64,000 nucleotides of DNA from an uncultured Gammaproteobacteria bacterium (GCA_965230935.1 OZ246400.1:87222-151221), one strand, 5' to 3'; counted from the stretch's first letter, positions 8,917-53,097 are shown. The notes: a model not told the origin generated them from the letters alone. Numbers and translations are program-made.

Positions 8917-8918
8917 CT

Positions 8919-14780: not shown

Positions 14781-14790
14781 AAGTAGCGGT

Positions 14791-15345
14791 ATGTACTTGT
14801 CTGACAAGAGCATCCAAGAATATATTCAATTAGGCAAAATCATCATTCAACCTGAGTATAATCTTGATGATATACAGGCCGCAGGTATTCGAGTCCATCT
14901 TGACGATAAGGTACTTGTTCCAAAACCTGATCAGACTATCGATTTACAACATCCGTCAAATATAGAATACGACGAGCATTCTCTAAAAGAACAACCATAC
15001 ACCATCACTCCAGGAAAATTTATTCTCGCGTCAACCATTGAGCGTGTACAACTCGATCGTTCATTAGTCGGATTCATCGACGGCAGATCAACAATGGCAC
15101 GACTCGGACTTACCATGCATCTCTCGTCGACTATTATAGATGGCAATTATACTGAACCAAGAGCTACTACATTAGAGATAAAAAATTTGGGTAACTTTTC
15201 AATAGTGCTCAATTACAAAGATCCGGTTGGGATGATGGCCTTTGCGCAAATGAAAGATTTGGTAGCGCAGGATCCTCGTAGTCAATATCAAGGACAAGAC
15301 GGTGCTACACCTCCGAATTTGATAGATTCAAAACCCCAGGCCTAG
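14791..15345 (+). CDS. dcd: dCTP deaminase
   Basis: MYLSDKSI...IQP start and dUTPase-fold motifs. Length 184 aa. Confidence 0.75.
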   Translation: MYLSDKSIQEYIQLGKIIIQPEYNLDDIQAAGIRVHLDDKVLVPKPDQTIDLQHPSNIEYDEHSLKEQPYTITPGKFILASTIERVQLDRSLVGFIDGRSTMARLGLTMHLSSTIIDGNYTEPRATTLEIKNLGNFSIVLNYKDPVGMMAFAQMKDLVAQDPRSQYQGQDGATPPNLIDSKPQA

Positions 15346-24295: not shown

Positions 24296-24553
24296 ATGCT
24301 TAATGCAAAAAGTTTTGGGTTGGCTGGTGGAATTTTGTGGGCACTTGGCTTGATCATTCTCACCATCATTGGGATGAACGGTAGTTATGCGCCGTCATTT
24401 TTTAGTTTTATGGCCGAGGTATATCCTGGGTATGCATTGACCGGGTCAGGATTGGTTTTTGGTGCGATCTGGGCATTTGTTGATGCCTTTATTGGATTGT
24501 ATTTATTTGCATGGTTGTACAACTGGTTGTGCAAGAAGTGTGGGAAGAAATAG
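24296..24553 (+). CDS. Small hypothetical membrane protein
   Basis: 85 aa, two or three hydrophobic helices. Tightly packed after the previous ORF. Confidence 0.45.
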   Translation: MLNAKSFGLAGGILWALGLIILTIIGMNGSYAPSFFSFMAEVYPGYALTGSGLVFGAIWAFVDAFIGLYLFAWLYNWLCKKCGKK

Positions 24554-24584
24554 GAAAAAATAAAATAGTATCCCAATCAGTAGC

Positions 24585-24610
24585 CCCACCTTTGCAATTG
24601 CGAGGTGGGG
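24585..24610. terminator. Hairpin between convergent genes (possible bidirectional terminator)
   Basis: ccccacct-ttgcaattgcg-aggtgggg perfect stem. T-rich runs follow within 15-20 nt on both strands. Confidence 0.35.
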
Positions 24611-24637
24611 CTATGGTTGTGTGTTGTTTTTGAAGTC

Positions 24638-25219
24638 TCAGTCGCGCTTAAGCTGGATGATCAGCGCGATGCTGCCGTTGCCGACGATGCCGTTGGCGAT
24701 GGGATGAACCAGCTCGAGCCAGCTCCCCTCACCCCAGTCGATGATGATGGCGATCACCACGAGCGTGTAGGCCAGAACCGCGAGGTTCCACGGCGGCGCT
24801 TTCTCCTTCGCGTCCTTGAACAGGAGCCCGAATGCGGTCGGGATGAAGGAAATCACGTAGATCACCTGTAGTAGGATGTTCGCCGTGATGGCATCACCCG
24901 TGATCTTCCATACCACACCCACTAGCAGGCAGAGGGTGCCACACACGATCTCGGTCCAGCCGAGATCCCCGAACTTACCCTTTCGCAGGGCGTAGAAGAT
25001 CGCGGAAAGACCAACTGCGGCAAAACCTGTGATTGCCCACTCGAAGTAGTTGCCACGCACCACAACGAAGTACGAAACTGCGTTCATGATACCCAGCACC
25101 AGCCAGATGAGCCACGTGGCAGGGTTGGGTGTCGAGTGGCCTTTGGCCACCTGACGGTAGTACATGACGATGACCGCGCAGATGCACAGACTCGCCAGAA
25201 TGGAAAGAACGTGTGCCAT
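24638..25219 (-). CDS. Hypothetical polytopic membrane protein (GC-rich island)
   Basis: 193 aa with five or six TM helices. GC-rich codon usage distinct from the surrounding genes. Confidence 0.55.
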   Translation of the reverse strand: MAHVLSILASLCICAVIVMYYRQVAKGHSTPNPATWLIWLVLGIMNAVSYFVVVRGNYFEWAITGFAAVGLSAIFYALRKGKFGDLGWTEIVCGTLCLLVGVVWKITGDAITANILLQVIYVISFIPTAFGLLFKDAKEKAPPWNLAVLAYTLVVIAIIIDWGEGSWLELVHPIANGIVGNGSIALIIQLKRD

Positions 25220-25232
25220 TGTCGGCCTCCTT

Positions 25233-25520
25233 CTACGTACCGTACCTGAAGTACAGAATCAGTGAGATCACGATGAGGTTGATCAGTGCGCTCAGTCCCA
25301 GGCACACCAGCAGCACGTTGTTGCGCTTGAAGAACCCGTCGAGTGCGAACGCGATTTGCGTGCTGAGGTAGATCAGGAACATGGGCACCGAGAGCCCCTC
25401 GGTCACTTGCGTGGTGATGAGCTTCCAGAGCTGCGGTAGCATGGCAGTCACGTTGACAAAGCCGAAACTCCAGATTACCCATGGCCATCGTATTTTCGCC
25501 GCAAATTCTTCACGTGTCAT
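25233..25520 (-). CDS. PQ-loop / SemiSWEET-like small membrane transporter
   Basis: About 95 aa with 3 TM helices and a PQ-loop signature (MLPQLWKLITTQ). GGAGG sits 6 nt upstream of the ATG at 25520. The ORF-track start at 25694 is too early and would overlap the tRNA flank. Confidence 0.6.
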   Translation of the reverse strand: MTREEFAAKIRWPWVIWSFGFVNVTAMLPQLWKLITTQVTEGLSVPMFLIYLSTQIAFALDGFFKRNNVLLVCLGLSALINLIVISLILYFRYGT

Positions 25521-25697
25521 GGTAACCCTCCTCGGCCAGACGTGAGGCTTTAATGTAGTAAATATTAGGGATTTTGTCAATGATATTAAGTCGGCTGGGG
25601 CAACGCTCGTTTCACTCGCTAGATGCTCACTTCGTTCGCAAGCGAACCCAATCCAGCTTTGCTGGATGTGGGTTCTCGCCAAACAGACTAACAAAAG

Positions 25698-25722
25698 AAA
25701 ACACCCCTAATGGGGTGTTTTC
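25698..25722 (-). terminator. Hairpin terminator downstream of tRNA-Lys
   Basis: aaaacacccc-taat-ggggtgtttt perfect stem flanked by A/T runs on both sides. Confidence 0.5.
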
Positions 25723-31856: not shown

Positions 31857-32534
31857 ATGGAACATCAAGAAGGATTTAATGGCCACAAAAAAGACGAGAA
31901 TTTTTTTCTGCAACATCTTGAGCGCAGATTTAAATATTGGCTTCTTCCACACTTTCCCAAATGGATTGAGACGTATCATTTAACGTACATGACGCTCATT
32001 TGGTGTGTCGGTATTTTATTAGGAAGTTACTTTGCTGCTCGATACGATATGAATTGGCTGTGGCTTGTCTCGATCATGATTGTATTACAGTGGTTCACAG
32101 ATCTGTTTGATGGTGCCATTGGTCGGTATCGTAATACCGGTTTGGTGCGGTGGGGGTTTTACATGGATCATTTTCTTGATTATGTATTTTTAGCCAGTAT
32201 TATTATTGGGTATGCGTTTATCCTCCCGCCACGGTTTGATTATGCGCTGTTTTTCTTGTTGGTGATTGCCACCGGGTACATGGTCAGTTCGTTCTTAGAA
32301 TTCGGCGCACGCAACAAGTTTCGAGTAAATTTTTTGAAAATCGGGCCAACAGAGGTCCGATTGGTGTTTATTGTTATCAATGTCCTGTTGGTAATCTTTG
32401 GCAAAACCGGCATGGCAGCAGCGTTTCCATATGTTTTGGTTGCTGGATTTTTGGGCTTAATTTACGTGGTATATGTCACACAGAAGGAATTGTGGGAGAT
32501 CGACATGAAAAATAAGCGTAAAAACATGTATTAA
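31857..32534 (+). CDS. CDP-alcohol phosphatidyltransferase family protein
   Basis: DLFDGAIGRYRNTGLVRWGFYMDHFLDYV matches the D-G-x2-A-R-x8-G-x3-D-x3-D signature. Polytopic. Confidence 0.7.
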   Translation: MEHQEGFNGHKKDENFFLQHLERRFKYWLLPHFPKWIETYHLTYMTLIWCVGILLGSYFAARYDMNWLWLVSIMIVLQWFTDLFDGAIGRYRNTGLVRWGFYMDHFLDYVFLASIIIGYAFILPPRFDYALFFLLVIATGYMVSSFLEFGARNKFRVNFLKIGPTEVRLVFIVINVLLVIFGKTGMAAAFPYVLVAGFLGLIYVVYVTQKELWEIDMKNKRKNMY

Positions 32535-32613
32535 AGGGGTCGGTGGATAACCTATCTTTACAATTTGGCGTTTGGACACTATACTATTGCCGTTATAAAT
32601 TGAATCGTAATCT

Positions 32614-34014
32614 ATGGCGCTTATCCATACGCTGAAAAAACATGCAGTAGCACTGATCGTGCTCTTTGGTGCAGTAGCACTGTTTGCCTCACAACATAGT
32701 CTTGCTTCAGGAGGATCATCTGGTGGCCATGGAGAATTTGCCGTAACCTTTCTCTGGATTGCGGTTATTTTAATTTTGGCAAAAGTTTCCAGCCTCATTG
32801 AGCGGTGGGGGCAGCCGGCAGTACTTGGCGAGCTAATCATGGGTGTGGTGCTTGGAAACCTCGCACTGCTCGGGTGGCATTTGTTTGAGCCAATTAAAAC
32901 CAATGAGATTATTAAGTTTCTCTCAGAGCTCGGTGTGGTGATTTTGCTGTTCCAGATTGGACTAGAGTCAAATATTCAAGAAATGAAGCGTGTTGGTGCG
33001 CGAGCGTTTTCTGTTGCGATCATTGGTGTGGTAGCACCATTTGTGCTAGGGGCGTATGTTGTTGGCCCATGGCTTTTGCCTGATTTGAGCACCACGGCGC
33101 ATCTGTTCTTGGGTGCAGCGCTTACCGCAACCTCAGTTGGTATCACCGCACGCGTGTTTCAAGATTTGGGCAAGTTGAAAATGAAAGAAGCACAGATTGT
33201 GCTGGGAGCGGCCGTGATTGATGATGTGCTTGGTTTGATTATCTTGGCAGTGGTTTCGGCAATCGCAACAGTAGGTGCAGTGAGTTTGGGAATGATTGGT
33301 TGGATTACTGCTAAGGCGATTTTGTTCCTGGTTGGTGCGATTGTGCTCGGGCAGTTGTTTGCAAAGGTAATCAGCAAGTTTTTCTCCAAGATTCACACTG
33401 GCGTTGCCATGAAGTTTACCATTGTGGTGAGTTTTGGATTGATCTTTGCATTTTTGGCGGCGCTCATCGGTTTGGCACCAATTATTGGTGCGTTTGCTGC
33501 AGGGTTAATTCTCGATCCGGTGCATTTTCGCTACTTTAAAGATCCGCATGTGGTTAATGATGTGAAAGAAGCAGTTAAGGAGCTGGGTGAGGAGTCACGG
33601 AAAAAGGTTCAGCATGCGATTAATCACCATGCGCATCGTCATATTGAGGATTTGATCGAGCCACTTGGTCATTTCTTGATCCCAATCTTTTTTATTGTCA
33701 CCGGTATGGCAGTACAGCTTGAGACCATGTTTGACCCATCCATTTTGTTGATCGCACTTATTATTACGGTGATTGCATTTATTGGTAAGTATATTTCCGG
33801 CTGGGGAGCAGGAAAGGGGGTCAACAAATCGTTGATTGGTTTTGGAATGGTGCCACGTGGAGAAGTTGGATTAATTTTTGCCGCAATTGGAAAAGAGCTT
33901 GGTGTGGTGAATGAACAGGTATTCTCAATTATTATCGTCATGGTGATTCTCACCACCTTATTGACCCCACCGGTTTTGACGTGGCTTTTGAAGCGCGTAA
34001 AAAGTGCAGCGTAG
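32614..34014 (+). CDS. Monovalent cation:proton antiporter (CPA/Na+-H+ exchanger family)
   Basis: 466 aa with about 12 TM helices and typical Na_H_Exchanger segments (GELIMGVVLG, FLLFQIGLE). Confidence 0.75.
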   Translation: MALIHTLKKHAVALIVLFGAVALFASQHSLASGGSSGGHGEFAVTFLWIAVILILAKVSSLIERWGQPAVLGELIMGVVLGNLALLGWHLFEPIKTNEIIKFLSELGVVILLFQIGLESNIQEMKRVGARAFSVAIIGVVAPFVLGAYVVGPWLLPDLSTTAHLFLGAALTATSVGITARVFQDLGKLKMKEAQIVLGAAVIDDVLGLIILAVVSAIATVGAVSLGMIGWITAKAILFLVGAIVLGQLFAKVISKFFSKIHTGVAMKFTIVVSFGLIFAFLAALIGLAPIIGAFAAGLILDPVHFRYFKDPHVVNDVKEAVKELGEESRKKVQHAINHHAHRHIEDLIEPLGHFLIPIFFIVTGMAVQLETMFDPSILLIALIITVIAFIGKYISGWGAGKGVNKSLIGFGMVPRGEVGLIFAAIGKELGVVNEQVFSIIIVMVILTTLLTPPVLTWLLKRVKSAA

Positions 34015-34071
34015 GGGAATGTCCCGAGCTGTGGTACAATACTGGTGATGTAAATCACCAGTATTTTTGTT

Positions 34072-34536
34072 ATGCCGCAAGAAGCTCAAGTGAATCAAGT
34101 ACAAAATCCAACACCAATCAAGTCGGATTCCACAAGGCCGCCGCTGATTACCTTTATTGGAATACTTGGAATTTTGTATTCTGCATTTGGTATTTTTTCA
34201 TTAATCATGACATTGCTTTCATCTTTTCAAGAGGTGAAAGCTGCTCTTCCAGAAGGAACAGACGCCACAACAGTAGCGCAGGTAGTACTCCTGGCAGCTG
34301 GAGGAGTGATTGTGGTAATTTTGGCTTCAGCAATTTTGCGGCTTGTTACGGCAATTGGACTACTTAAAATGCGTAAATGGGCGTTTAAGTTGTTTATTGC
34401 AATCTTAGTTGTCTCAGTGCTCACCACGATTTCTTCATTTATTCTCAAAGCAAATTTGACACTCAATCTCTCGTTCCTTATTATCGAGGTGGTCGTATTT
34501 AGTTATTTGTATTCGGTGAGGGGGCAGTTGAAATAG
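34072..34536 (+). CDS. Hypothetical membrane protein
   Basis: 154 aa with four predicted TM helices. Confidence 0.45.
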   Translation: MPQEAQVNQVQNPTPIKSDSTRPPLITFIGILGILYSAFGIFSLIMTLLSSFQEVKAALPEGTDATTVAQVVLLAAGGVIVVILASAILRLVTAIGLLKMRKWAFKLFIAILVVSVLTTISSFILKANLTLNLSFLIIEVVVFSYLYSVRGQLK

Positions 34537-34651
34537 GAGTCCTTTTAGCTACGCAACCTTAGCAACTTCGTCGCTAAACAAAGTCACCATAGCGGTTCGG
34601 CCCGAAGGCCTCACGGCTAAGGTGGCTCATTCATTGCTTCGCAATTCATTC

Positions 34652-34728
34652 GCCACCTTAGCTCAGTTGGTCAGAGCGGCGCACTCGTAACGCGCAGGCC
34701 GTCGGTTCGATCCCGACAGGTGGCTCCA
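34652..34728 (+). tRNA. tRNA-Thr (anticodon CGT)
   Basis: GCCACCTTAGCTCAGTTGGTCAGAGCGGCGCACTCGTAACGCGCAGGCCGTCGGTTCGATCCCGACAGGTGGCTCCA. The CCA end is encoded. Confidence 0.85.
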
Positions 34729-34756
34729 TTATTTTGAGTCGTGCTATACTATCCCC

Positions 34757-35437
34757 ATGATTCGCCTTAAAGAAGTGACCAAAATGTACCCACTAAACAC
34801 GGTGGGAGTTAAGGATATTCATCTGCATGTTAAACCAGGTGAATTTGTTTCTATAGTTGGGATGAGTGGGACAGGGAAGAGTACGTTGATCAAGCTTTTG
34901 ATTGCAGAGGAAAAAGCCACTCGAGGCCAGATCATTATTGGTGGGTGGGATATCACCAAGATTTCTCAACGCGAAGTGCCACTTTTGCGTCGCCAGATTG
35001 GCGTTATCTTTCAGGATTTTAAACTTCTCCCGAAAAAGACGGTTTTCGAAAACGTAGCCTTTGCCCTTGAGGTTTCTGGAGAGCGCGCAAAGCGCATCAA
35101 AGAGATTGTCCCACAAGTCCTCGAAATCGTAGGACTTGAGAAAGAAATGCATCGGTATCCACATCAAATCTCAGGTGGAGAAGCACAGCGGGTAGCAATT
35201 GCGCGGGCATTAGTTCATCGGCCAAAAATTTTAGTCGCTGATGAACCTACCGGAAACCTCGATACCCTCAACACCTCAGAGATCATCTCAATTCTGAAAA
35301 AGATCAATGAGTTTGGCACCACCATTGTTTTGGTGACGCATAATAGGGAGGTGGTAAACAAGCTGAAAAAGCGGGTGATCACTTTAGATGATGGCAGGAT
35401 TATCTCAGATCAAAAATCAGGTAAATACGTACTGTAA
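34757..35437 (+). CDS. ftsE: Cell division ATP-binding protein FtsE
   Basis: ABC ATPase with Walker A GMSGTGKST, signature SGGEAQR, and Walker B ILVADEPTGNLD. It is followed by ftsX. Confidence 0.85.
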   Translation: MIRLKEVTKMYPLNTVGVKDIHLHVKPGEFVSIVGMSGTGKSTLIKLLIAEEKATRGQIIIGGWDITKISQREVPLLRRQIGVIFQDFKLLPKKTVFENVAFALEVSGERAKRIKEIVPQVLEIVGLEKEMHRYPHQISGGEAQRVAIARALVHRPKILVADEPTGNLDTLNTSEIISILKKINEFGTTIVLVTHNREVVNKLKKRVITLDDGRIISDQKSGKYVL

Positions 35438-35438
35438 T

Positions 35439-36350
35439 ATGGTAACTCTTTTGCGAAGTATTAAATTTGGATTGCAAAACGCATGGCGTAATTTTGGCCT
35501 CAGTGCAATTACTGTCACGATCTTAGTACTAATGGTGCTCAGTGTTAACACAGTGATCGGCATTGGAGCGATTACCAATGCTGCAGTTGATTCGGTCAAA
35601 AGCCAAGTAGACATTAGTATCTTTTTCGAAGCCGATGCATCGCAAGAAACAGTGGACGAGGTAGTAAATGTGATTAACACCTTTCCTGATGTCAAAGAGA
35701 TAACCGTCAAAAGTAGTGCACAAGTGATGGAAGAGTTTCGCGCACTGCATGCAGATGACGAAGCGATTCAATTTTCAGTGCAAGAGATTGGTGATGGCTT
35801 ATTTGGACCTACCGTGATTGTACGCACCAATGAGCCTGGACAATATGCACCAATCATCGCGGCACTCGACATCCCGGAATACGAGAACATCATTGAATCT
35901 CGAACCTTTGATGATAGCTCAGATATTATTGGACAAATTGATCTGGTCACTTCGCGCGCGAAAACAATCGCGTGGGTAGTAACGATCCTTTTTGGTGTTG
36001 TTGCTTTTCTGATCGTTGCTTCGTCAATCCGCGTGGCAATCTTTACCCAACGTGAAGAGATTAGTATTCAAAAGCTGGTTGGTGCTGGAAATTGGTTTAT
36101 CAAAGCGCCATTTATTGTTGAAGTCATCCTTTACTCGACCCTTGCCATGATCATATCGCTTGTGATACTCTATTTTGGCACTACACTCAGTGATCCGTAT
36201 ATTCGTCGCATTTTTGGCAGTTATCCGTTTAGCTTATACGAATTTTTCCTGAGTAATGGCGCCTGGATCTTTATTACAGAATTTTTCGCGTTAATTATCA
36301 TGAGTTTGATCAGTGGGTTGATTTCCATGCGAAGATTTCTCAAGGTCTAA
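35439..36350 (+). CDS. ftsX: Cell division permease FtsX
   Basis: Four TM helices with a large first periplasmic loop. The start was chosen after the ftsE stop. Confidence 0.75.
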   Translation: MVTLLRSIKFGLQNAWRNFGLSAITVTILVLMVLSVNTVIGIGAITNAAVDSVKSQVDISIFFEADASQETVDEVVNVINTFPDVKEITVKSSAQVMEEFRALHADDEAIQFSVQEIGDGLFGPTVIVRTNEPGQYAPIIAALDIPEYENIIESRTFDDSSDIIGQIDLVTSRAKTIAWVVTILFGVVAFLIVASSIRVAIFTQREEISIQKLVGAGNWFIKAPFIVEVILYSTLAMIISLVILYFGTTLSDPYIRRIFGSYPFSLYEFFLSNGAWIFITEFFALIIMSLISGLISMRRFLKV

Positions 36351-36352
36351 TC

Positions 36353-36423
36353 TCCGAGATCGTCTAATGGTAGGACGCCAGGTTTTGGTCCTGGATATCG
36401 GGGTTCGAATCCCTGTCTCGGAA
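36353..36423 (+). tRNA. tRNA-Gln (anticodon TTG)
   Basis: TCCGAGATCGTCTAATGGTAGGACGCCAGGTTTTGGTCCTGGATATCGGGGTTCGAATCCCTGTCTCGGAA folds with anticodon loop TTTTGGT. Confidence 0.8.
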
Positions 36424-36425
36424 CT

Positions 36426-36989
36426 ATGAAGTCTATCTCTGTTCTTGCTATCGTGTTGGTTTCCCTTACTTTTTTTGGATTTGGATGTGACACAAATGAA
36501 CCAAAAATCGTCACGTATCACGAGGTATTGCTCAAGAAAATCAGCTTTGCAGTACAGCTCCCAGATCACTGGGAAGAAAATCCAATTACTGCAGATCCAC
36601 ATGGTCCTGCTGATTACCATGAGTTTGTGATTCCACGTCATGCACAGAGCGAAGACAAAGTCGCTGGGACAATTGGATTTCGGTTAGTTCCGCGGATTGA
36701 ACAAAATGCACTGGAAGACGAAGTCGAAGAGCTTAAGCCGTTTATTCAAGATTCAGCCGGAACCGAAGGGATATTTGACCCTACTGTTCCGGTAGCTATG
36801 GCAGGGAACTCAGCATTGCAATTACGTTGGCAAGGCGTGACTAAAAACGATGTAGAAGAGGTGTGGTACTACACCTTTGCATTTGTAGAGGATGATCTGC
36901 TCGTTGGATATTATTTTGACGAAGTTACCGATGGCGCGTTATTTAAAGAAGTTTACGATCAGGCGTTGACCAGTTTAGAGAAGCGGTGA
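36426..36989 (+). CDS. Hypothetical lipoprotein
   Basis: Signal peptide with lipobox LTFFGFGC. Length 187 aa. Confidence 0.55.
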   Translation: MKSISVLAIVLVSLTFFGFGCDTNEPKIVTYHEVLLKKISFAVQLPDHWEENPITADPHGPADYHEFVIPRHAQSEDKVAGTIGFRLVPRIEQNALEDEVEELKPFIQDSAGTEGIFDPTVPVAMAGNSALQLRWQGVTKNDVEEVWYYTFAFVEDDLLVGYYFDEVTDGALFKEVYDQALTSLEKR

Positions 36990-37046
36990 TTGCAGTTGGA
37001 TCAATTGTTTGTTACCATACCAATATCTTAGTATTAATATTACGAT

Positions 37047-37622
37047 ATGCAACAACTGCGTAAATTATTGATTGTATTAGGAGCTGTCGCACTTCTTGGT
37101 GCCGGATGTGGCTCTAGTGGCCCAGCTACTGAAACCGTCACATTACCTGATCGTCCAGAAACACCAGCAGGATTTTCTAATCATAGTACTGATGAGTGGA
37201 CCATTGCGTACCCAAGTGATTGGGAGCCGGTGCGTAATCCAGATGATCTATTGCAATACTTTTTCGCGACACCGTATGTGGAGAGTCCAGATGAGTTTGA
37301 GCATAGTGTAAATATCACCATTTCTCCTGATCAAGCAGAGGTATTACCACTTGATGAGTTGCGCTCACAGGTCGAATCACTCCTATTGCAAGTTGGGGCA
37401 AGTGAGATTACCGATAGCCGAACTGTATTGTTGCCACAAGCACAAGCGGTACGAATCGAGTATAAGGCTACCTCACCAGATGGCGAAGAGCTTTTTGGTA
37501 CCCAGGTTGGTTTGTACGACGAAGATGACTTGTATGTCCTGACCTTTACTGCGTCTCAAATTGGCCAAGAAGCGTTTTTGGCTGATTTTGAAGACATGAT
37601 CATGAGCTTTCAAGTCAACTAA
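37047..37622 (+). CDS. Hypothetical lipoprotein (possible paralogue of the upstream one)
   Basis: Signal peptide with lipobox LLGAGC. Length 191 aa, similar size and composition to the upstream lipoprotein. Confidence 0.55.
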   Translation: MQQLRKLLIVLGAVALLGAGCGSSGPATETVTLPDRPETPAGFSNHSTDEWTIAYPSDWEPVRNPDDLLQYFFATPYVESPDEFEHSVNITISPDQAEVLPLDELRSQVESLLLQVGASEITDSRTVLLPQAQAVRIEYKATSPDGEELFGTQVGLYDEDDLYVLTFTASQIGQEAFLADFEDMIMSFQVN

Positions 37623-37730
37623 GTAATTGTAGAAATAGCTGAAAAACCCAGTGTTTTACTGGGTTTTTCTTATTTTAGGTAAATTTTTGTATCTGTGTTT
37701 TTTCTTACTATTTAGAGTGTTTTGAAGGAC

Positions 37731-37759
37731 TTGACAAAACCATTCATATGTGCTATAGT
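37731..37759 (+). promoter_or_regulatory. Near-consensus sigma70 promoter driving the non-coding GC-rich unit
   Basis: TTGACA, a 17-bp spacer (aaaccattcatatgtgc), then TATAGT. Predicted transcription start near 37766. Confidence 0.6.
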
Positions 37760-37765
37760 ACGTCA

Positions 37766-38759
37766 GTTCGAGGATCGGTGGGATGCAGGTGTGGCCCGAA
37801 GGGGGCAGCCTGATGACCGATTGCTCGAAGATCCCTGCTGTTCATGGCGGGCTGACCATTGCGGAACGAGTGCGAAATTTCAACGAGGCGCCGAAAGGAG
37901 CCACCAAGCACTTCACCGCGTGCGTGCAGTTTCCGTCCCCCGAGCAGGGAAAACGATGTCTTGCCAAGTGACCCCTTCTGGGCGTTGGTATGGATCGGGG
38001 CATCGTTCTGGTAGGCCGTTTCCGTACAGAAAATCCAGCTGGTGACGGTTGTCGGTCGGACCACGCAGATCCAGAGTAAGGTGAAGTAAGAGGTTAAACA
38101 CTGCCCCTCAAACTTCAGACCAGCTTTACTCGTTGAGAGCGCAGGGGTTCACCCGTGGAACGGTGATCGGCCTTGCTTCCTAGCGGCCTCCGGGGCGCGA
38201 CAATGGACTCAATAAATGCAGAATGGGAAACCTACGGAGAGTTGGCGCTGGTCACTGCTAGTCAACCCAACCGTAGGGGACTCCTCCTGTAAAAGTGATG
38301 TATCTTGATTGGTTGCGGCGCGGAAATAAGCACCCCGTGCGAGCCAGGACGGATAGAACGATGAATCCAGAAATCTCCACTGTGCTGCCGCCGGGTAGCT
38401 CGCGCAAGCGAAAAAGCAGTTATGGGATCGTTCGCATCACAGCAGTAGTACCCAATGCAAGGTTGAGAGACCCTATGGGATGCTGTAAAGAGAGGTTGGG
38501 GTCGAAGGTGTGTCCTCGCGGATCCAACTTTGACCGTGTTCGCCATTTTCTAAAGGGAGTTTCATCTTGTTTTCAAGACAGGGTGTAACTCCTAGCTGGG
38601 GGGGGATCAATGAAGCGCCGCGACACCGCTTCTCCCCCAATCCCAGTGTCAACGATTACTGACCAAGCCCGAAACAGACGGGAGGTCGGCGACCAGCAGA
38701 TTACCATATAGTTTCGCGAGGGCGGAGTTATCACTGGACAACCAATCTGCTGGTCGTTT
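37766..38759 (+). ncRNA. Candidate large (about 1 kb) structured non-coding RNA of unknown family
   Basis: GC-rich (well above the flanking DNA). No ORF longer than 107 codons on either strand, and the longest ORFs are Arg-rich with no Shine-Dalgarno sequence. Many GNRA-like tetraloops on short stems (cgcGCAAgcg, ccGAAAgg, cccGAAGggg). Nested helices such as ctggggggggatcaatGAAGCGccgcgacacCGCTTCtcccccaatcccag. A 12-bp long-range stem gaccagcagatt/aatctgctggtc is followed by gtttt as a terminator. Confidence 0.5.
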
Positions 38760-38806
38760 TAATTTTGTCCAATTTTCCTTGACAAGTTTTTAAAAGTGCG
38801 TCATGC

Positions 38807-39034
38807 TTGATATATACAAGCTTTTCTTGTTTTGTATTTGGTATGCCTATTCCAAAACTCCATGCAAAACAGGACGATTTGCTCCGTCGTGAGCGTATAG
38901 AGAAAGAGATGATCGATCAGTATTTACGTCGTGATGATGTAAAACCGGCTCGATATCGGTTTAGTGTGCGTGGCGCTCGCCAGGCGATTGCAGATAGTTC
39001 TCCTACTGAATATTTCCGCACCCATGGGGATTAG
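38807..39034 (+). CDS. Small hypothetical protein
   Basis: A 63-75 codon ORF between the ncRNA terminator and dusB. Charged and helical. Weak support. Confidence 0.25.
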   Translation: MIYTSFSCFVFGMPIPKLHAKQDDLLRRERIEKEMIDQYLRRDDVKPARYRFSVRGARQAIADSSPTEYFRTHGD

Positions 39035-39112
39035 CTTTAGGTTGCCTGATTCGTCTTTTGTAATAGACAAGTATTGAAAATCTGTTATCATAGCCCGAAA
39101 GGGCTTATTGTT

Positions 39113-40093
39113 ATGGAGCAATTTTCTTGGCAAAATCAATTGCGACCAATTATCGCACTTTCTCCAATGGCTGACATGACCGACAGCCCGTTTTGTTTGA
39201 TTGCCAAAGAGTTGGGCGCCAAAATTGTATTTCGAGAAATGGTCTCATCTGAAGCACTGATTCGTGGGAGTGAGAAGACCATGGCAATGGCTGAGTTTGA
39301 CCAAAAAGAGCGGCCAATTATTCAGCAAATTTTTGGAGCAGATCCAGATCATATGGCGCAAGCTGCTCAGATTGTTGAAGAAAATTTTCACCCGGATGGC
39401 ATCGATATTAACATGGGTTGTCCAGTGTATAAGATTGTGAGTAATTTTAATGGCGCAAGTCTTATGCGAGATAAGGATTTGGCTGTGGCGATTGTAAAAA
39501 AAATGAAAGCGGCCATTACCGTTCCGTTATCCGTTAAAATCCGTCTGGGATGGGCTGAGAAAATCGAGGCCATTGAATTTGTAAAGTACCTCGAGGATGC
39601 CGGTGCTGATCTTATCACGGTACATGGACGTACAAAAAAACAAGGATACTCTGGAACTTCTGATTGGGAAATGATTGGAAAAGTGGTTGATCAAGTCAGC
39701 ATTCCTGTTTTAGCAAATGGTGATATTCACAAACCAGAGCAAGTAAAAGAGGCGCTTGAAGTGACCGGTGCTGCTGGTGCACTGATTGCACGTGGTGCGC
39801 TTGGGAATCCGTGGTTTTTCGCTCATGCACAAGAGATTCTTGAAACTGGAGCAATTCAAACACCAATTAACCTTGAGCAACGATTTGCGATTGCACTTAA
39901 GCACGCAAAAACGCATGTTGATCATTACGGAGAACGTGGTATTGTGACATTTCGCAAACACATGAGCTGGTATCTTAAAGGGTTGCCGCATGTAAAAGAG
40001 GTGCGACAAAAAGCAGTCCGTGCTAACTCGCTCGGAGAACTTGAGCAAATTGTTGCTGAGTTTTTGTCCAATCAAGTAGTTTTCAGCTCGTAA
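39113..40093 (+). CDS. dusB: tRNA-dihydrouridine synthase
   Basis: LSPMADMTDSPF, GADIDINMGCP and VHGRTKKQGYSG motifs of the Dus family (TIM barrel, FMN). The start was chosen at MEQFSW. Confidence 0.8.
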   Translation: MEQFSWQNQLRPIIALSPMADMTDSPFCLIAKELGAKIVFREMVSSEALIRGSEKTMAMAEFDQKERPIIQQIFGADPDHMAQAAQIVEENFHPDGIDINMGCPVYKIVSNFNGASLMRDKDLAVAIVKKMKAAITVPLSVKIRLGWAEKIEAIEFVKYLEDAGADLITVHGRTKKQGYSGTSDWEMIGKVVDQVSIPVLANGDIHKPEQVKEALEVTGAAGALIARGALGNPWFFAHAQEILETGAIQTPINLEQRFAIALKHAKTHVDHYGERGIVTFRKHMSWYLKGLPHVKEVRQKAVRANSLGELEQIVAEFLSNQVVFSS

Positions 40094-40767
40094 ACCACAT
40101 CTTTTCGCTCGACCACAATTTTCCATCCTTGACGTTTGGCCTCGTCGTACAGTTCTCGGTTTGGGTTAAAGGCAATAGGAGTATCTACTATTTCTAAAAA
40201 TGAAACATCAGAATACGTATCGCCCACACCGATTGAACCATCAAGGCTGAGGTTGCGTTTGGTGCAGAATTCAGTAAGAATTTCTTTCTTGAGATCCCAC
40301 GTTGGTAATGTGATGGTATCACCGTATCGCTCTTCGTCCTGACTGTACTGACAGCCAATCGCATGATCAAAGTTCCATTCTTTGACAAATTCATTCACAA
40401 TAAAATGTGGCGAACCGGAGATGGCGAGCAGAAGGTAATCTTTACGGATACTAACAATCAAATCACGGGTATAGGTGTATACGCGATTTTTTTGATTTTT
40501 TACTACCTCATGACTGATTTTTTCAACGTCTGTAATTTTACTTCCCACAATATAGCGATGATACGTTTCTGAAAAGGCAATTTCAAAATCATGATACGAG
40601 GTCAATCGATTTCGCCAGCCACTGTGATGCTCTTCAAATTCATGCAGCGCTTCTGTTGGGAAATGTCCTTTTTCTACGAGGGCATATACCAGTTGGAGCA
40701 TAAGGGCTGAGCGAAAAATCGTGCCATCAATATCAAATACTGCTAATTTTTGCTTTGATTTATCCAT
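40072..40767 (-). CDS. HAD-superfamily hydrolase (subfamily IB, phosphoserine-phosphatase-like)
   Basis: Motif I AVFDIDGTI and the later conserved GDTYSD Asp. Confidence 0.65.
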   Translation of the reverse strand: MDKSKQKLAVFDIDGTIFRSALMLQLVYALVEKGHFPTEALHEFEEHHSGWRNRLTSYHDFEIAFSETYHRYIVGSKITDVEKISHEVVKNQKNRVYTYTRDLIVSIRKDYLLLAISGSPHFIVNEFVKEWNFDHAIGCQYSQDEERYGDTITLPTWDLKKEILTEFCTKRNLSLDGSIGVGDTYSDVSFLEIVDTPIAFNPNRELYDEAKRQGWKIVVERKDVVYELKTT

Positions 40768-40821
40768 AGTGTTTTTCGTATACAGACATGGTACACTCTA
40801 TGTGCAAACTCGCAAAGTCGT

Positions 40822-41370
40822 ATGAATTTACACGTTATTTTAGGGCCAATGAAAAGTGGGAAGTCCCATGAGTTGATTAGTCATTTTGCGCCGCTTGGAT
40901 TTACTGATATTTCGCATGGTTTGTTTCAATCGGTTCGAAATGTGCGTGATCAAAGTGTGTGGTCTCGTAATGGTACTGAGTTGGCAGCGCAAAAAGTACA
41001 GACACTTGAGCCGGTGTATAATCAGCACTTAAATGTAGTAGGGATAGATGAGTTTCATATGTTTGCCCCAGAGGACGCGCACTGGATTGAGATGATGTTG
41101 CGCGAGGGGACAAAGGTGGTGGTGTCTTCGCTCGATACTGATTATCAAGGAAAGCTGTTTGAAACCGTCAGTAATTTATTGCAGCTCGGACCGGCTGAAG
41201 TTAAGTTTAAACGCTCGGTATGTGAGAATTGCAAAGCTCCGCACGCAATTTATTCTCAAATTTTTAAAGAGGGCGAACCACTCCTTGATGGTATGCCTCC
41301 GGTAATCCCAGATGACGGTACATTTACGTACAAACCAGTGTGTCGTAAATGTTTTATTAAAATTTGGTGA
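40822..41370 (+). CDS. tdk: Thymidine kinase
   Basis: P-loop GPMKSGKS and a C-terminal zinc ribbon (CENC...CRKCF). Length 182 aa. Confidence 0.8.
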   Translation: MNLHVILGPMKSGKSHELISHFAPLGFTDISHGLFQSVRNVRDQSVWSRNGTELAAQKVQTLEPVYNQHLNVVGIDEFHMFAPEDAHWIEMMLREGTKVVVSSLDTDYQGKLFETVSNLLQLGPAEVKFKRSVCENCKAPHAIYSQIFKEGEPLLDGMPPVIPDDGTFTYKPVCRKCFIKIW

Positions 41371-41372
41371 AA

Positions 41373-41942
41373 CTATTCAACGTAGTTCACGATCACGTGA
41401 TCTTTAAAGCCAACCCCAGAAAGTGGGATGCTATAGAATGTTCCTTCTTTGGTGTCGTCAATGACGCTGTAGAGCGGTCCTGGGATAACTCCAAATTTTG
41501 TACCGTTGAGTTTTACCAGCCCTGCTTTTACGCGTAAGAACATCAGAAATGTTCCACCTTGTCCTGGAATTGGGGCACGAATTGGTGTGGTAAAATCGTA
41601 TTTTTCTGGTTTGCCGGTGTGTTTTTCAACGGGTAGAGAAGAAAGGTTTTGCATGCCTTTATTTTTTGATGCGCGCATCTTAAAGCCATATACCACAAAA
41701 ACAATAAACACAATTAATAAACTCAGCATGATCCAAAACGCAGTTTGATCACCCTGTGCACTGTCGAGCGCAAACAACCCGATGGCGGTTGGTATCGCGA
41801 CAACTAGTCCGCAGATAATGAGAATCCAAGCGGTTACACCACGTGCGTTCATCATTTTGGTTAACACCATAATCTGCGCAGCAGAGAGTTTGCCGGATTT
41901 GTTTTCTGACAATGCGTCAGTAAGATATTGAAGATGTTCCAT
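41373..41942 (-). CDS. Hypothetical membrane protein
   Basis: 189 aa with two TM helices and a C-terminal soluble domain. Confidence 0.45.
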   Translation of the reverse strand: MEHLQYLTDALSENKSGKLSAAQIMVLTKMMNARGVTAWILIICGLVVAIPTAIGLFALDSAQGDQTAFWIMLSLLIVFIVFVVYGFKMRASKNKGMQNLSSLPVEKHTGKPEKYDFTTPIRAPIPGQGGTFLMFLRVKAGLVKLNGTKFGVIPGPLYSVIDDTKEGTFYSIPLSGVGFKDHVIVNYVE

Positions 41943-42017
41943 AGAATTATTTTGTTCTAGTATACCAAATCTGATATACTTTACCCATACGAATACTAAT
42001 TTTTTATTTCATCTTTT

Positions 42018-42434
42018 ATGAAAAAAGGGATGTGTTGTAATAACCAATCGCTCGGGTTACTCCTACTGCGTGTTGGTTTGGGTGCTGTGTTTCTTACACA
42101 TGGAATTTTGAAGTTCCAAAACATGGGAGAGACGGTTGAATGGTTTGCCTCTATTGGCTTGGCAAGCTTTTTTGCCTATCTTGTGGCTTTGATTGAGACG
42201 CTTGGTGGTATCGCACTTATTTTAGGAACCTATGTTGGTCCATTTGGCTACTTGCTGGCAATTGTGATGCTTGGAGTATTTGTTAAGATGTGGGATGTAC
42301 CATGGGTTGGAAAACACGAGTTTCATCTGTTATTGTTGCTTGGCAGCTTGAGTGTGGCAATGGCAGGTCCTGGAAAATACACCTTTGGACCGCGTTGTTG
42401 TAAGAAAAAAGGGGGTGGAAAGTGCTGTAAGTAG
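42018..42434 (+). CDS. DoxX-family membrane protein with Cys/Lys-rich C-terminal tail
   Basis: LLLRVGLGAVFLTHGILKF is typical of DoxX. The C-terminus reads CCKKKGGGKCCK. Confidence 0.6.
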   Translation: MKKGMCCNNQSLGLLLLRVGLGAVFLTHGILKFQNMGETVEWFASIGLASFFAYLVALIETLGGIALILGTYVGPFGYLLAIVMLGVFVKMWDVPWVGKHEFHLLLLLGSLSVAMAGPGKYTFGPRCCKKKGGGKCCK

Positions 42435-42492
42435 TATTTGCTGAAAACCTCGCATTATCGGCGGGGTTTTTTGATTTTTATGGTATACTGGG

Positions 42493-43185
42493 GTGTGTAT
42501 GAGTACACCCAAGAAGAAAAAGAAAGGGCTTTTGACCATGGCGCGCTGGGAACAGTACCGCACCGTTGATGAGCTCATTGAGCGCAGTCAAGCCAACTCA
42601 CTGTATTATACATTATTGGTGCTATCCTCCTTTATTGTAGCTTCAGGGTTACTGCTTAGTAACTCAGCTATTGTTATTGGAGGAATGTTAGTAACGCCGC
42701 TACTCACACCAATTCTGTTGGTGGCATTGGGCTTGGCAATTGGAGAGGTGCGGCCAATCAAGCGTGCGTTTTATTTGATTATAAAATCTGCTGCCATTGT
42801 GGTGGTAGGTTCAGCAGCTCTGGCATTTATTTTTGGAACCGCAAGAGGATCGTTTGTGTTTGATGATAGTGCACAAACTGCGGTTTTGTACTTTATTGTG
42901 GCAATTGCTTCAGGTGTGGCCGCGACATTAGCGTGGGCACGAAAAGAGATTGCAGAGGTGTTACCAGGAGTTGCCATTGCGGTTTCTTTGGTGCCACCGC
43001 TTGGTATTGTGGGAATCGCATTAGCATCGTGGGATATTGCAGTGGTGCGGTTTCATGTGTTGATTTTCTTGTTTAACTTGCTTGGTATTTTGGTGGGGAG
43101 TTTGGTAGTGTTCTCACTCCTTAAATTCTATCGTAGTAGTGATGAGATGCAGAAAAAAGCGCACGAGATTGAGAAGCAAAGCTAA
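42493..43185 (+). CDS. DUF389-like polytopic membrane protein
   Basis: Six or more TM helices with a Lys-rich N-terminus. The start is uncertain (42499 or 42538). Confidence 0.4.
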   Translation: MCMSTPKKKKKGLLTMARWEQYRTVDELIERSQANSLYYTLLVLSSFIVASGLLLSNSAIVIGGMLVTPLLTPILLVALGLAIGEVRPIKRAFYLIIKSAAIVVVGSAALAFIFGTARGSFVFDDSAQTAVLYFIVAIASGVAATLAWARKEIAEVLPGVAIAVSLVPPLGIVGIALASWDIAVVRFHVLIFLFNLLGILVGSLVVFSLLKFYRSSDEMQKKAHEIEKQS

Positions 43186-43190
43186 TCAAT

Positions 43191-43853
43191 ATGCAACAGT
43201 CAGTGCGTGAGTACATTCGATTGGCCATTGGTGCCATCCTTTTTTTAATTGTGGTTGCATTATTGTATTGGTTTGATGTATTCACCTGGTTTACTCCATC
43301 GCACATTCAATCATTTGTTGCTGGATATGGTCCATGGGGTCCAGTTTTGTTTATTGGATTGTACGCTGGTGCTGCAACAGTATTTGTACCCGCAACACCA
43401 CTTAATATCTCAGCAGGACTACTTTTTGGGGCATGGTTTGGAATTGCATATGCACTTCTTGGGGCATTTCTTGGGGCGATCATCTCATTTGGCCTTGCGC
43501 GCTTTTTTGGTCGAGGATTTGTATATCGAATGGCAAAGTCCCATATTAAGCGTTTTTCAACATTTGAAAAACGCTTGGACGAAAATGCGCTTTTTACTAT
43601 TTTTTTGCTTCGCGTGATACCGGTCTTCCCCTTTTTTGTTATTAATTACGCTCTTGGGCTCAGTAGTATTTCGTTTCGAAAATACGCAATTGCCACGGCA
43701 ATTGGGATTATACCTGCAACAACTGTGTACGCATTTTTTGGAGGTTCGCTTGCAACGTTACATCCTTGGCAAATTGCATTTTCAGTACTTTTGATTTTGA
43801 TATTAGTTGTGCTGGTTCGTTGGTTTCAGCGCAGGCAATCATATGAAACGTAA
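43191..43853 (+). CDS. DedA/TVP38/TMEM64-family membrane protein
   Basis: Conserved F/YLLRVIPVFPFFVINYALGL and GIIPATTVYAFFG segments. Confidence 0.7.
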   Translation: MQQSVREYIRLAIGAILFLIVVALLYWFDVFTWFTPSHIQSFVAGYGPWGPVLFIGLYAGAATVFVPATPLNISAGLLFGAWFGIAYALLGAFLGAIISFGLARFFGRGFVYRMAKSHIKRFSTFEKRLDENALFTIFLLRVIPVFPFFVINYALGLSSISFRKYAIATAIGIIPATTVYAFFGGSLATLHPWQIAFSVLLILILVVLVRWFQRRQSYET

Positions 43854-51501: not shown

Positions 51502-51698
51502 TTAGAAAGCAGCTGAAAAGTTGTATTTTTTATATCTAAAATTAAGTTATGACACTCTTGACAAAAAAGCGCTTTTGTGGTAGTTTAATTAGTTCTCCAG
51601 CCAGGAAGAGCAGATGAATGACGCACCTCCTTAACGTGCAAAAAAACAAAAAATCATTCAACTGTTTCTTTAACCCACATGGACTAAGGAGGTCTGCG

Positions 51699-52121
51699 AT
51701 GGGGTATGTTCCTGGTAGGAGTTACACGGGTGTTTCTGTGGTCGTTGATTCGAAGGGGTTGCGTTTCATCTTGCTTTCGAGCAAGGAGGATGCGTGGCAC
51801 TTCCAGCGGCAGTGGTTTGCGCGTAGAGAGGATTATGGCTGCTGCCGTAACCTCTGTTACGACATTAGTGTCAGAGCTGTCGATGGGGAGGAGCGAACTG
51901 ACGATTTGGTGGGTTCTGAGTTCATGCTCAGAGAGTGCCATAGCGATTCGCCTATTCGATTTTCTGATGTCCGAGTCAATCTCAATGCCAATGGGGAGCT
52001 CTTCCTCGTGGTGGTGGGATCGCAGGCTCGAGCGTTCTCTTCTCTGGATCGAGATGGTCATGGGCAGCTGCTTCCTGGTAGGGACGGCAGCCCGGACATC
52101 GCGGTTCTTCACTACTACTAA
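51699..52121 (+). CDS. Hypothetical protein (GC-enriched cassette gene)
   Basis: Strong Shine-Dalgarno AAGGAGG 6 nt upstream of the ATG at 51699. A TTGACA-17-TAGTTT promoter lies upstream (51558). Length 140 aa, no recognised domain. Confidence 0.55.
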   Translation: MGYVPGRSYTGVSVVVDSKGLRFILLSSKEDAWHFQRQWFARREDYGCCRNLCYDISVRAVDGEERTDDLVGSEFMLRECHSDSPIRFSDVRVNLNANGELFLVVVGSQARAFSSLDRDGHGQLLPGRDGSPDIAVLHYY

Positions 52122-52258
52122 CTACTTAAAGGCTCTGGTGCAACGGACGTTGTGTCGGGGCCTTTCGATTTGTGACAAATATGAAAGAGAGGATAAGCAA
52201 AACCTCGATAGGTGATTATCGAGGCTGCGTGGTAAGTTGGTTGAATCCGCGGCGCACG

Positions 52259-52972
52259 TTAGGTGGTATCTTCGGGAAAGATGGTTCCGTACACCTCCAG
52301 ACAGCTCTCTCTAACCTCCCTGTACATCGGATTTTCTCCCGTGAGATCATCCTGAAAAGGTGGTTCAAACGCACCCATGAAGAGCTCTGCTTTACGTTGG
52401 CCAGAGCGCAGCAGCGCCGACAAGTAATCGTAATCTTCCAGCCCAAATGTGGACATGTCATCATGGATCTGTGCGAGCGTCGTACCGATCTCTATGTGAA
52501 GTCCTCGAAGCCCTTCGATTGTACAGCGCATGACACATGCAGGATGTGCGCGATGGTAGTAGTTGTGGACAATCAGGCTCCAGAGCATGTCTTTCCCATC
52601 GATTGGTGCAGAGCTTTCACGCGCAGCCACCTCGCAGCTGATGGGTTCCGGGGGCAAATCATTCCCGTAGATGATCGTGGTGAGGTGGGTGAGAGCATCA
52701 TGGAACGGATAGTTTGCCGGCTCAACGCTCGCATCGTCCTCGTGCAGGTTGCCAAACACAGCATTGATACAGTCGTTCAGATTTTCAGCTACCAGACTGC
52801 GAATGTGTGGGGACGACAAGCGAGACAGGGCATCCCTGCACGCACGAACTCGGCGGTGGTAGTACTGATGTGCCAAAGCCGCAACGCACAGGTGAATTTT
52901 ACTGTTGTGGTTTTGGAAGATCATGCGCGCTCCTGCGCATGAAAGACGTTGGATGTCTTTTTCGATACGCAA
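52259..52972 (-). CDS. Hypothetical protein with internally duplicated H-x-YYHR motif (GC-enriched cassette gene)
   Basis: 237 aa. AHQYYHRRVRAC and VHNYYHRAHPAC suggest an internal duplication. Convergent with the previous gene. Confidence 0.45.
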   Translation of the reverse strand: MRIEKDIQRLSCAGARMIFQNHNSKIHLCVAALAHQYYHRRVRACRDALSRLSSPHIRSLVAENLNDCINAVFGNLHEDDASVEPANYPFHDALTHLTTIIYGNDLPPEPISCEVAARESSAPIDGKDMLWSLIVHNYYHRAHPACVMRCTIEGLRGLHIEIGTTLAQIHDDMSTFGLEDYDYLSALLRSGQRKAELFMGAFEPPFQDDLTGENPMYREVRESCLEVYGTIFPEDTT

Positions 52973-53097
52973 GTCGCGCCTCCTTTACTGGGAGTAGGGA
53001 ATCATCTTTATAGATGTGTGTCAAATTTTAATTAGTGGAAAATAAATAATTTGAACAGACGTTCGCTTTGTTCGCTAGGATTCAAATCAGCTCTCAA

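Follow-up and report, generated by a model that had tools for sequence, protein, structure and literature searches.

GOLLD and ROOL RNAs are often found in prophages or adjoining tRNA clusters. Together with OLE, they are large 'ornate' bacterial non-coding RNAs (ncRNAs) of about 580-800 nt (PMC12286853), and all three are defined by hundreds of covarying homologs. A 'long GC-rich intergenic region' heuristic has been used to find large ncRNAs (PMC8723152), and screens of GC-rich intergenic regions also yield ncRNA candidates from single genomes (PMC11109978, PMC8632094).

The subject of this report is an element of ~1.14 kb of extra, non-coding chromosomal DNA (roughly 37625-38775) within a 64,000-nt stretch that was analyzed as a whole and is referred to as the window. 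It lies between a lipoprotein gene and the promoter region of a small ORF and dusB. Like GOLLD, ROOL, and OLE, the element is long, untranslated, and GC-rich in comparison with an AT-rich genome, and has an apparent promoter and terminator of its own; its function is likewise not evident from its neighbors, and it is picked out by the same GC-rich intergenic heuristic (PMC8723152). In contrast to these RNAs, it has no match to their covariance models, an excess of structure in its 3′ half only, no covarying homologs, no recognized phage genes nearby, and a Patescibacteria host. It also resembles the orphan candidates of GC-rich screens, with which it shares occurrence in a single genome and a case made from composition, gap length, promoter and terminator, and folding energy. 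Such candidates are normally retained only given covariation among homologs, a step that the element fails (PMC11109978, PMC8632094). We tentatively prefer, at somewhat less than even probability, to read it as an orphan, independently transcribed ncRNA with a structured 3′ domain of ~450 nt. That it is a non-functional remnant of acquired DNA is nearly as likely.

Results

The DusB protein encoded in the window has its named relatives in the Patescibacteria (Magasanikbacteria, Uhrbacteria, and 'Patescibacteria group'; 58-63% identity) and its nearest relatives at 68-75% identity; the host is an uncultured Patescibacteria (CPR) bacterium. Genes near the element are chromosomal housekeeping genes (ftsE, ftsX, tRNAs, dusB, and thymidine kinase). 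Between 37400 and 39100 the locus comprises, in order, the end of a lipoprotein gene, a terminator hairpin, an AT-rich stretch with promoter P1, a GC-rich region of ~1,000 nt, a stem with a T-run, a TTGACA hexamer, a small ORF, and dusB. The lipoprotein gene (37047-37622, + strand) encodes a PsbP-like protein with a signal peptide and an LGAGC lipobox. The small ORF (63 aa, 38843-39034, + strand) and dusB (tRNA dihydrouridine synthase, 39113-40093, + strand) are neighbors outside the element. An initial annotation had placed the unit between lipoprotein genes and dusB and outside any phage context. The placement between these genes is accurate: the two genes upstream both encode lipoprotein signal peptides, and dusB lies downstream with the 63-aa ORF between. 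No neighbor was recognized as a phage gene. A metagenome gene caller left 1,220 nt uncalled at this position, a gap made conspicuous by the compactness of the genome (the caller's other gaps in the 12.5-kb locus measure 1-220 nt). A tRNA-Gln gene located 1.3 kb upstream of the element also occurs in relatives without the element. Only 1-2 nt separate this gene (36353-36424) from ftsX (stop codon ending at 36350) on one side and from a lipoprotein gene starting with the ATG at 36426 on the other. In the loci of relatives, a tRNA gene likewise follows ftsX and another precedes ftsE.

Two related lineages keep the gene order and lack the element. In the closest relative (L005-L007; DusB 75% identical), the order Na/H exchanger, tRNA, ftsE, ftsX, tRNA, lipoprotein genes, small ORF, dusB, HAD, TK is preserved, with only about 95 nt between the PsbP-like gene and the small ORF, which keeps its position and encodes 52 aa there. 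In L043-L045 (DusB 73% identical), ftsE, ftsX, a tRNA, a 160-aa gene, dusB, HAD, TK, and DoxX are kept, and the corresponding gap is 114 nt. None of eight DusB relatives has a comparable gap at this site, and the more distant ones have other genes upstream of dusB. Given its absence from two related lineages with the same gene order, the element is lineage-specific among the sampled genomes. The comparison also sets its borders. The extra DNA begins just past the stop codon of the PsbP-like gene and ends at ~38775, since the next TTGACA (38779-38784, + strand), the -35 hexamer of the small-ORF promoter, aligns with the single promoter of L005. In the alignment of empty and filled sites, the AT-rich upstream terminator and P1 both fall within the extra DNA.

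Two further features were observed among the relatives. L049 (GCA_964450455.1), a distant relative, has a 736-nt uncalled gap downstream of dusB (8444-9179; GC 0.48, compared with 0.40 for its locus), with no Rfam match and no similarity to the element. L003 (GCA_964536205.1), a related Patescibacteria MAG, encodes at 13678-15214 a protein with the major-vault-protein domains Vault_3, Vault_4, MVP_shoulder, and Band_7.

The region from 37700 to 38750 is, as initially described, far more GC-rich than its flanks (0.50-0.60 vs. 0.37-0.46; 44% for the window), and it is non-coding. All six frames are interrupted, and their longest stop-free stretches (94-129 codons) are close to the expectation for random sequence of 57% GC, as calculated from base composition. 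Alternative genetic codes, with other stop-codon assignments, open no full-length frame. Three-base periodicity is absent from the element as a whole (chi2 p=0.92, compared with 1e-5 to 1e-14 in five neighboring genes). A frameshift-tolerant measure, the codon-phase GC range in 150-nt windows, is 0.118, matching the shuffle null (0.120 +/- 0.021) and well separated from real genes, GC-rich ones included (0.27-0.58). Stop-free stretches of 53-129 codons have no match in Pfam or NCBIfam. A concatenated six-frame query, also able to catch spurious ORFs called on homologous RNA loci, returned nothing at E<=10 from 5.8 billion proteins. Exhaustive phmmer searching with the 129-aa stop-free stretch gave two matches only, both of them artefacts because they sum weak matches to tandem-repeat proteins. 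The lack of similarity in these protein searches and the absence of periodicity over the whole element mean that it is not a recognizable pseudogene. The initial claim that neither strand holds a credible ORF is therefore well founded, and the match to a known protein that would speak for a decayed gene was sought in Pfam, NCBIfam, and the 5.8 billion proteins, with no significant result.

A 62-codon ORF (37783-37971) starts 17 nt past the predicted transcription start and could be read as a small-protein gene, in which case this frame would be translated and the rest of the unit would be a 3′ UTR with a terminator. The ORF has a GAGGA motif 8 nt before its ATG at 37783 and a GC3 (0.68) above its GC2 (0.51), and the codon-phase GC of the first 180 nt agrees with the frame. 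However, GAGGA has no demonstrated meaning in this genome, since all 13 of the host genes examined (starts 31857-43191) lack a Shine-Dalgarno motif in the 25 nt upstream. Moreover, an ORF of this length is expected by chance at 57% GC, neither Pfam nor the six-frame search provides a match or homolog, and about 800 nt would be left unexplained. A small-protein gene is thus very improbable. In two of the 13 host genes (starts 34757 and 42499), a -10-like TATACT box lies no more than 10 nt before the ATG, an arrangement suggestive of leaderless or near-leaderless mRNAs.

To judge from its expression signals, the element is laid out as a self-contained transcription unit on the + strand. The putative promoter P1 (37731-37759, + strand) consists of a -35 TTGACA (37731-37736), a 17-nt spacer, a TG at 37751-37752 that makes it an extended -10 promoter, and a -10 TATAGT (37754-37759). 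With 11 of 12 matches and the TG present, it deserves the term near-consensus that the initial annotation gave it, and its predicted transcription start is at ~37766. Sites of this quality number four on both strands of the 64 kb (128 kb in total) against 1.9 in shuffled sequence; what is unlikely to arise by chance is the position of P1 exactly on the edge of the GC-rich island. The upstream intrinsic-terminator-like hairpin (37641-37676, + strand), formed by GAAAAACCCAGT/ACTGGGTTTTTC over 12-13 bp, 12 of them perfect, and followed by a T-run, stands between the unit and the PsbP-like gene; L005 lacks it. Both this hairpin and P1 lie in AT-rich, host-like sequence, a setting that would be expected of a maintained expression unit.

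At the other end, a terminator-like element (38688-38769, + strand) contains an inverted repeat of 13 nt with 100% complementarity (38690-38702 / 38744-38756). The stem can be extended to 15 bp (38688-38702 / 38744-38758; GGCGACCAGCAGAUU / AAUCUGCUGGUCGUU), encloses a smaller hairpin of 10 bp, and is followed by GTTTTAATTTTG (GUUUUAAUUUUG). The unit-ending stem and T-run of the initial annotation are thus present, with the 12 bp reported there corrected to 13 perfect or 15 extended base pairs. An 8-bp direct repeat, CTTGACAA, occurs at 37730-37737 and 38778-38785 and brackets the GC-rich body together with the P1 spacer and -10 box. This repeat could be a target-site duplication. It is weak evidence of insertion because it consists of the -35 hexamer shared by two promoters and one flanking base at either end, and terminal inverted repeats are absent.

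The orientation of the unit, which is shared with the small ORF and dusB directly downstream, and the quality of the small ORF's own promoter (good -35, poor -10) would both suit a cis-acting leader, in which transcription from P1 would continue past the 3′ hairpin into the two downstream genes, the folded 3′ domain and the terminator acting together as an attenuator. We consider this very unlikely. L005, where there is no element, has this weak promoter in front of its small ORF, and dusB has a promoter-like site of its own (39064-39091) that is conserved in L005. In addition, no riboswitch or leader family matches the element, and a leader of 1 kb would be extreme. A short hairpin (39092-39105) lies downstream of the dusB promoter-like site, ahead of the start codon, and has a counterpart at ~6289-6303 in L005. 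The two differ in sequence (AGCCC-GAAA-GGGCT in the window, GCCC-ACCAA-GGGC in L005), and the hairpin itself may be conserved as part of the leader.

The folding energy of the whole unit is -393 kcal/mol on the + strand (z -3.99, 20 shuffles) and -356 on the - strand (z -2.17). Folding that is better than chance is limited to a 5′ hairpin and about 420-500 nt at the 3′ end. The hairpin (UUCGAGGAUCGGU...ACCGAUUGCUCGAA; 37767-37829, + strand) has pair probabilities of 0.93-0.98, and the 200-nt window starting at 37766 has a z score of -2.5 on the + strand, compared with +0.1 on the - strand. The segment that follows (37830-38265, + strand) makes up about 44% of the transcript, is the most GC-rich part of the element (0.56-0.60), and has no excess of RNA structure (z -0.49; 33 of 100 shuffles fold as well). 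In the structured 3′ domain (38340-38690, + strand), the z score is -2.61 on the + strand, where one shuffle in 100 is as good, vs. -0.91 on the - strand. For the 3′ half including the terminator, the + strand energy (z -5.5) is combined with a low ensemble diversity (z -2.7); the corresponding - strand values are -1.9 and -1.1.

The predicted 3′ domain opens with a three-way element (38356-38433) whose loops include GCCG and GCAA. Four hairpin arms in a row (38442-38486, 38489-38551, 38555-38593, and 38595-38647) come next, and then a short stem that is weaker (38648-38663), with a pair probability of 0.7. Most pair probabilities within the domain fall in the range 0.85-0.99, but those of a few short stems are 0.58-0.70. 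Several of the stems rely on G-U pairs that exist on the + strand only. Loop-loop complementarity of at least 5 nt, as in pseudoknots or kissing loops, was not found. In 200-nt windows, the mean z score of the element (-1.56) does not exceed those of the GC-rich coding islands elsewhere in the window (-1.5 to -1.95). The abundance of GNRA tetraloops reported initially does not hold, as four hairpins with such loops compare with 2.4 expected (P=0.22) and with 2-7 in coding controls. The nested helices noted initially are not supported throughout the unit, as 37830-38265 has no folding excess. The proposal of a large structured RNA is therefore upheld in part: the element is non-coding, appears to be its own + strand transcription unit, and belongs to no described family, but structure does not extend across the full kilobase.

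Comparison with described RNAs was made by cmscan with all 4,227 Rfam 15 models, at the gathering score over the window and at E<=10 on 37600-38900 and 38240-38790. At the gathering score, the window contains four tRNAs only and the element nothing; at E<=10, the matches inside the element are noise (a CRISPR repeat, a snoRNA, a microRNA, and a 12-bit FMN fragment). The check for a known family that the initial annotation had called for thus gave no match. Models for GOLLD, ROOL, OLE, HEARO, and raiA give nothing in the element at either threshold, and the SRP and 6S covariance models have no match there. RNase P RNA, tmRNA, and group II introns, discounted at first for want of hallmark motifs, are likewise without an Rfam match at E<=10, and ARAGORN detects no tmRNA. 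Group I and group II introns have a catalytic core, are inserted inside a host gene, and often contain an intron-encoded protein. Neither set of intron models has a match at E<=10, and the element lies between genes, where it has a promoter of its own and contains neither an ORF nor the remnant of a protein.

Two types of mobile or interrupted element were considered and rejected. A tRNA split by a group I intron, an idea taken from PMC13011429, would leave tRNA halves at the ends of the element, where there are none. An insertion sequence or MITE is contradicted by the lack of terminal inverted repeats and by the single copy in the window. More broadly, the element could be a very divergent or decayed form of something known, such as an ORF-less group I/II intron, an IS200/605-type guide RNA, RNase P RNA, or tmRNA that has diverged beyond the reach of the covariance models. 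It is an insertion relative to related genomes, and introns are reported to be frequent in Patescibacteria (PMC13011429). We nevertheless judge this the least probable reading and a very unlikely one: even on a search space of 551-1,301 nt there is no Rfam match at E<=10, the position is between genes and not inside one, P1 would provide independent transcription, and there is neither an ORF nor a remnant of a reverse transcriptase, homing endonuclease, or transposase, nor any terminal inverted repeat.

No homolog of the element was retrieved from any collection searched. Comparisons by BLASTN and nhmmer, the tools proposed with the initial annotation, covered 50,697 phage and 72,556 plasmid records (blastn, distant mode) and all fetched loci of relatives (nhmmer). 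Six-seed back-translated scans extended to IMG/VR, JGI metagenomes, and GTDB species genomes (185,579 species, a set that does not contain the source genome), a hairpin-loop pattern tolerating stem transitions was run against the JGI metagenomes, and three junction/loop patterns were run against IMG/VR; in the seed-based nucleotide searches, relatives below roughly 85% identity would be missed. A pattern of junction and loop with free stems had 32 matches in GTDB genomes, which are attributed to chance as they fall in unrelated taxa and show no further similarity. As no homolog was retrieved, neither conservation nor covariation stands behind the element. The literature searched contains no report of a large ncRNA specific to Patescibacteria.

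The element is present in a single copy in the window and is identical in the MEGAHIT contig and the Logan contigs of run ERR2281801; run ERR2281800 contains its last 27 nt and the downstream genes at 100% identity. The Logan assembly of ERR2281801 breaks within the element (L002 ends at 38245 and L053 starts at 38227), near the border of the unstructured and structured parts. This break may reflect a sequence variant or only low coverage.

The window contains other GC-rich islands at 1-1400 (0.60-0.70), 24500-25650 (0.55-0.60), and 51650-53000 (0.51-0.56). The first two, which were probably acquired horizontally, consist of intact genes in which the codon-phase GC signal is strong. They encode a 401-aa protein without a Pfam match and a pair of membrane proteins that resemble transporters and weakly match PQ-loop, MtN3/SWEET-type, and EamA. 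The third holds ORFs at 51618-52121 and 52172-52942. In one of the islands there is a GAGGAGGG ribosome-binding site, which is missing from the 13 host genes examined, and on account of this contrast the genome probably took up higher-GC DNA repeatedly. No donor of a GC-rich coding island was matched among plasmids or phages. Since the other islands in the same window are coding and probably acquired, GC-richness alone is not an RNA signature here. The transporter pair is preceded by a GC-rich leader of ~150 nt (25521-25700, - strand) with a TTGACA-containing promoter-like site and GAGGAGGG. The leader matches no Rfam family at the gathering score and could be an unrecognized cis-regulatory RNA that arrived with its island.

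With acquired genomic islets the element shares a GC content 10-15 points above that of the genome and an absence from the same site in relatives. It differs from the window's own islands, which are intact genes with strong codon periodicity, in having no periodicity and in carrying host-like expression signals at its ends. As a non-functional remnant of acquired higher-GC DNA, it would be a non-coding or broken cassette with a terminator, its promoter would be fortuitous or left over, and any transcript would have no role. This origin is quite possible, if somewhat short of probable. It is consistent with the clearly coding nature of the other islands, with the GAGGAGGG site of one of them, with the empty sites of L005-L007 and L043-L045 and the lack of relatives, and with the absence of a structure signal from the most GC-rich part. 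The codon-phase GC signal of the 5′ half is borderline and not significant (P=0.067); the phase with the highest GC changes near 37946, as it would in a frameshifted GC-rich gene. This signal and the GAGGA-preceded 62-codon frame, with its GC3 above GC2, hint at an origin of part of the element in foreign coding DNA but do not amount to evidence for it.

Several observations are difficult to reconcile with such a remnant. No frame has protein similarity, stop density is that of random sequence in all six frames, and the 3′ half is without codon-phase periodicity (P=0.9). Decay sufficient to erase all coding signal should also have lowered the GC content toward the 44% of the host, and the GTDB collection (185,579 species) contains no donor-like sequence at the sensitivity reached. 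Furthermore, the structure of the 3′ domain is strand-specific, and terminator, promoter, and terminator are positioned as in a working unit.

Discussion

If the element is an orphan ncRNA gene, as we tentatively prefer, its parts can be assigned as follows. The upstream PsbP-like gene would be ended by its own terminator, and the near-consensus, sigma-70-type extended -10 promoter would start transcription at ~37766. About 1,000 nt of untranslatable GC-rich RNA would follow, and transcription would stop at the long hairpin and U-tract (38688-38769), shortly ahead of the next gene's promoter. The product would presumably be a stand-alone ncRNA with its 5′ end capped by the stable hairpin and its last 420-500 nt folded into the three-way element and the row of hairpin arms, the ~430 nt between them being not detectably structured. 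From this anatomy alone, we would guess that the RNA is stable and acts in trans, and that the folded 3′ domain is the part that binds a protein or ligand. Such an RNA is in no described family and is so far unique to one organism.

The case is built on one sequence, and its value is that of a flagged target for metatranscriptomics and exhaustive nucleotide homology searches. For genomes that hold GC-rich acquired islands, the locus also illustrates that the 'long GC-rich intergenic region' heuristic, used alone, overstates the evidence for structure. A new class of large structured RNA is accordingly a hypothesis to which we assign a low probability. It is similarly doubtful, while conceivable, that the element represents the first sighting of a new large ncRNA in Patescibacteria/CPR, with a transcript of ~1 kb and a folded core of ~450 nt, which a single lineage of these minimal-genome symbionts would have gained or retained and whose relatives are unsampled or have diverged beyond the reach of seed-based searches. 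The genomes of Patescibacteria rank among the smallest and most compact in bacteria. Because of this compactness, a kilobase-long, untranslated, and strongly promoted unit would be costly to its host, and the RNA that it encodes would presumably be useful.
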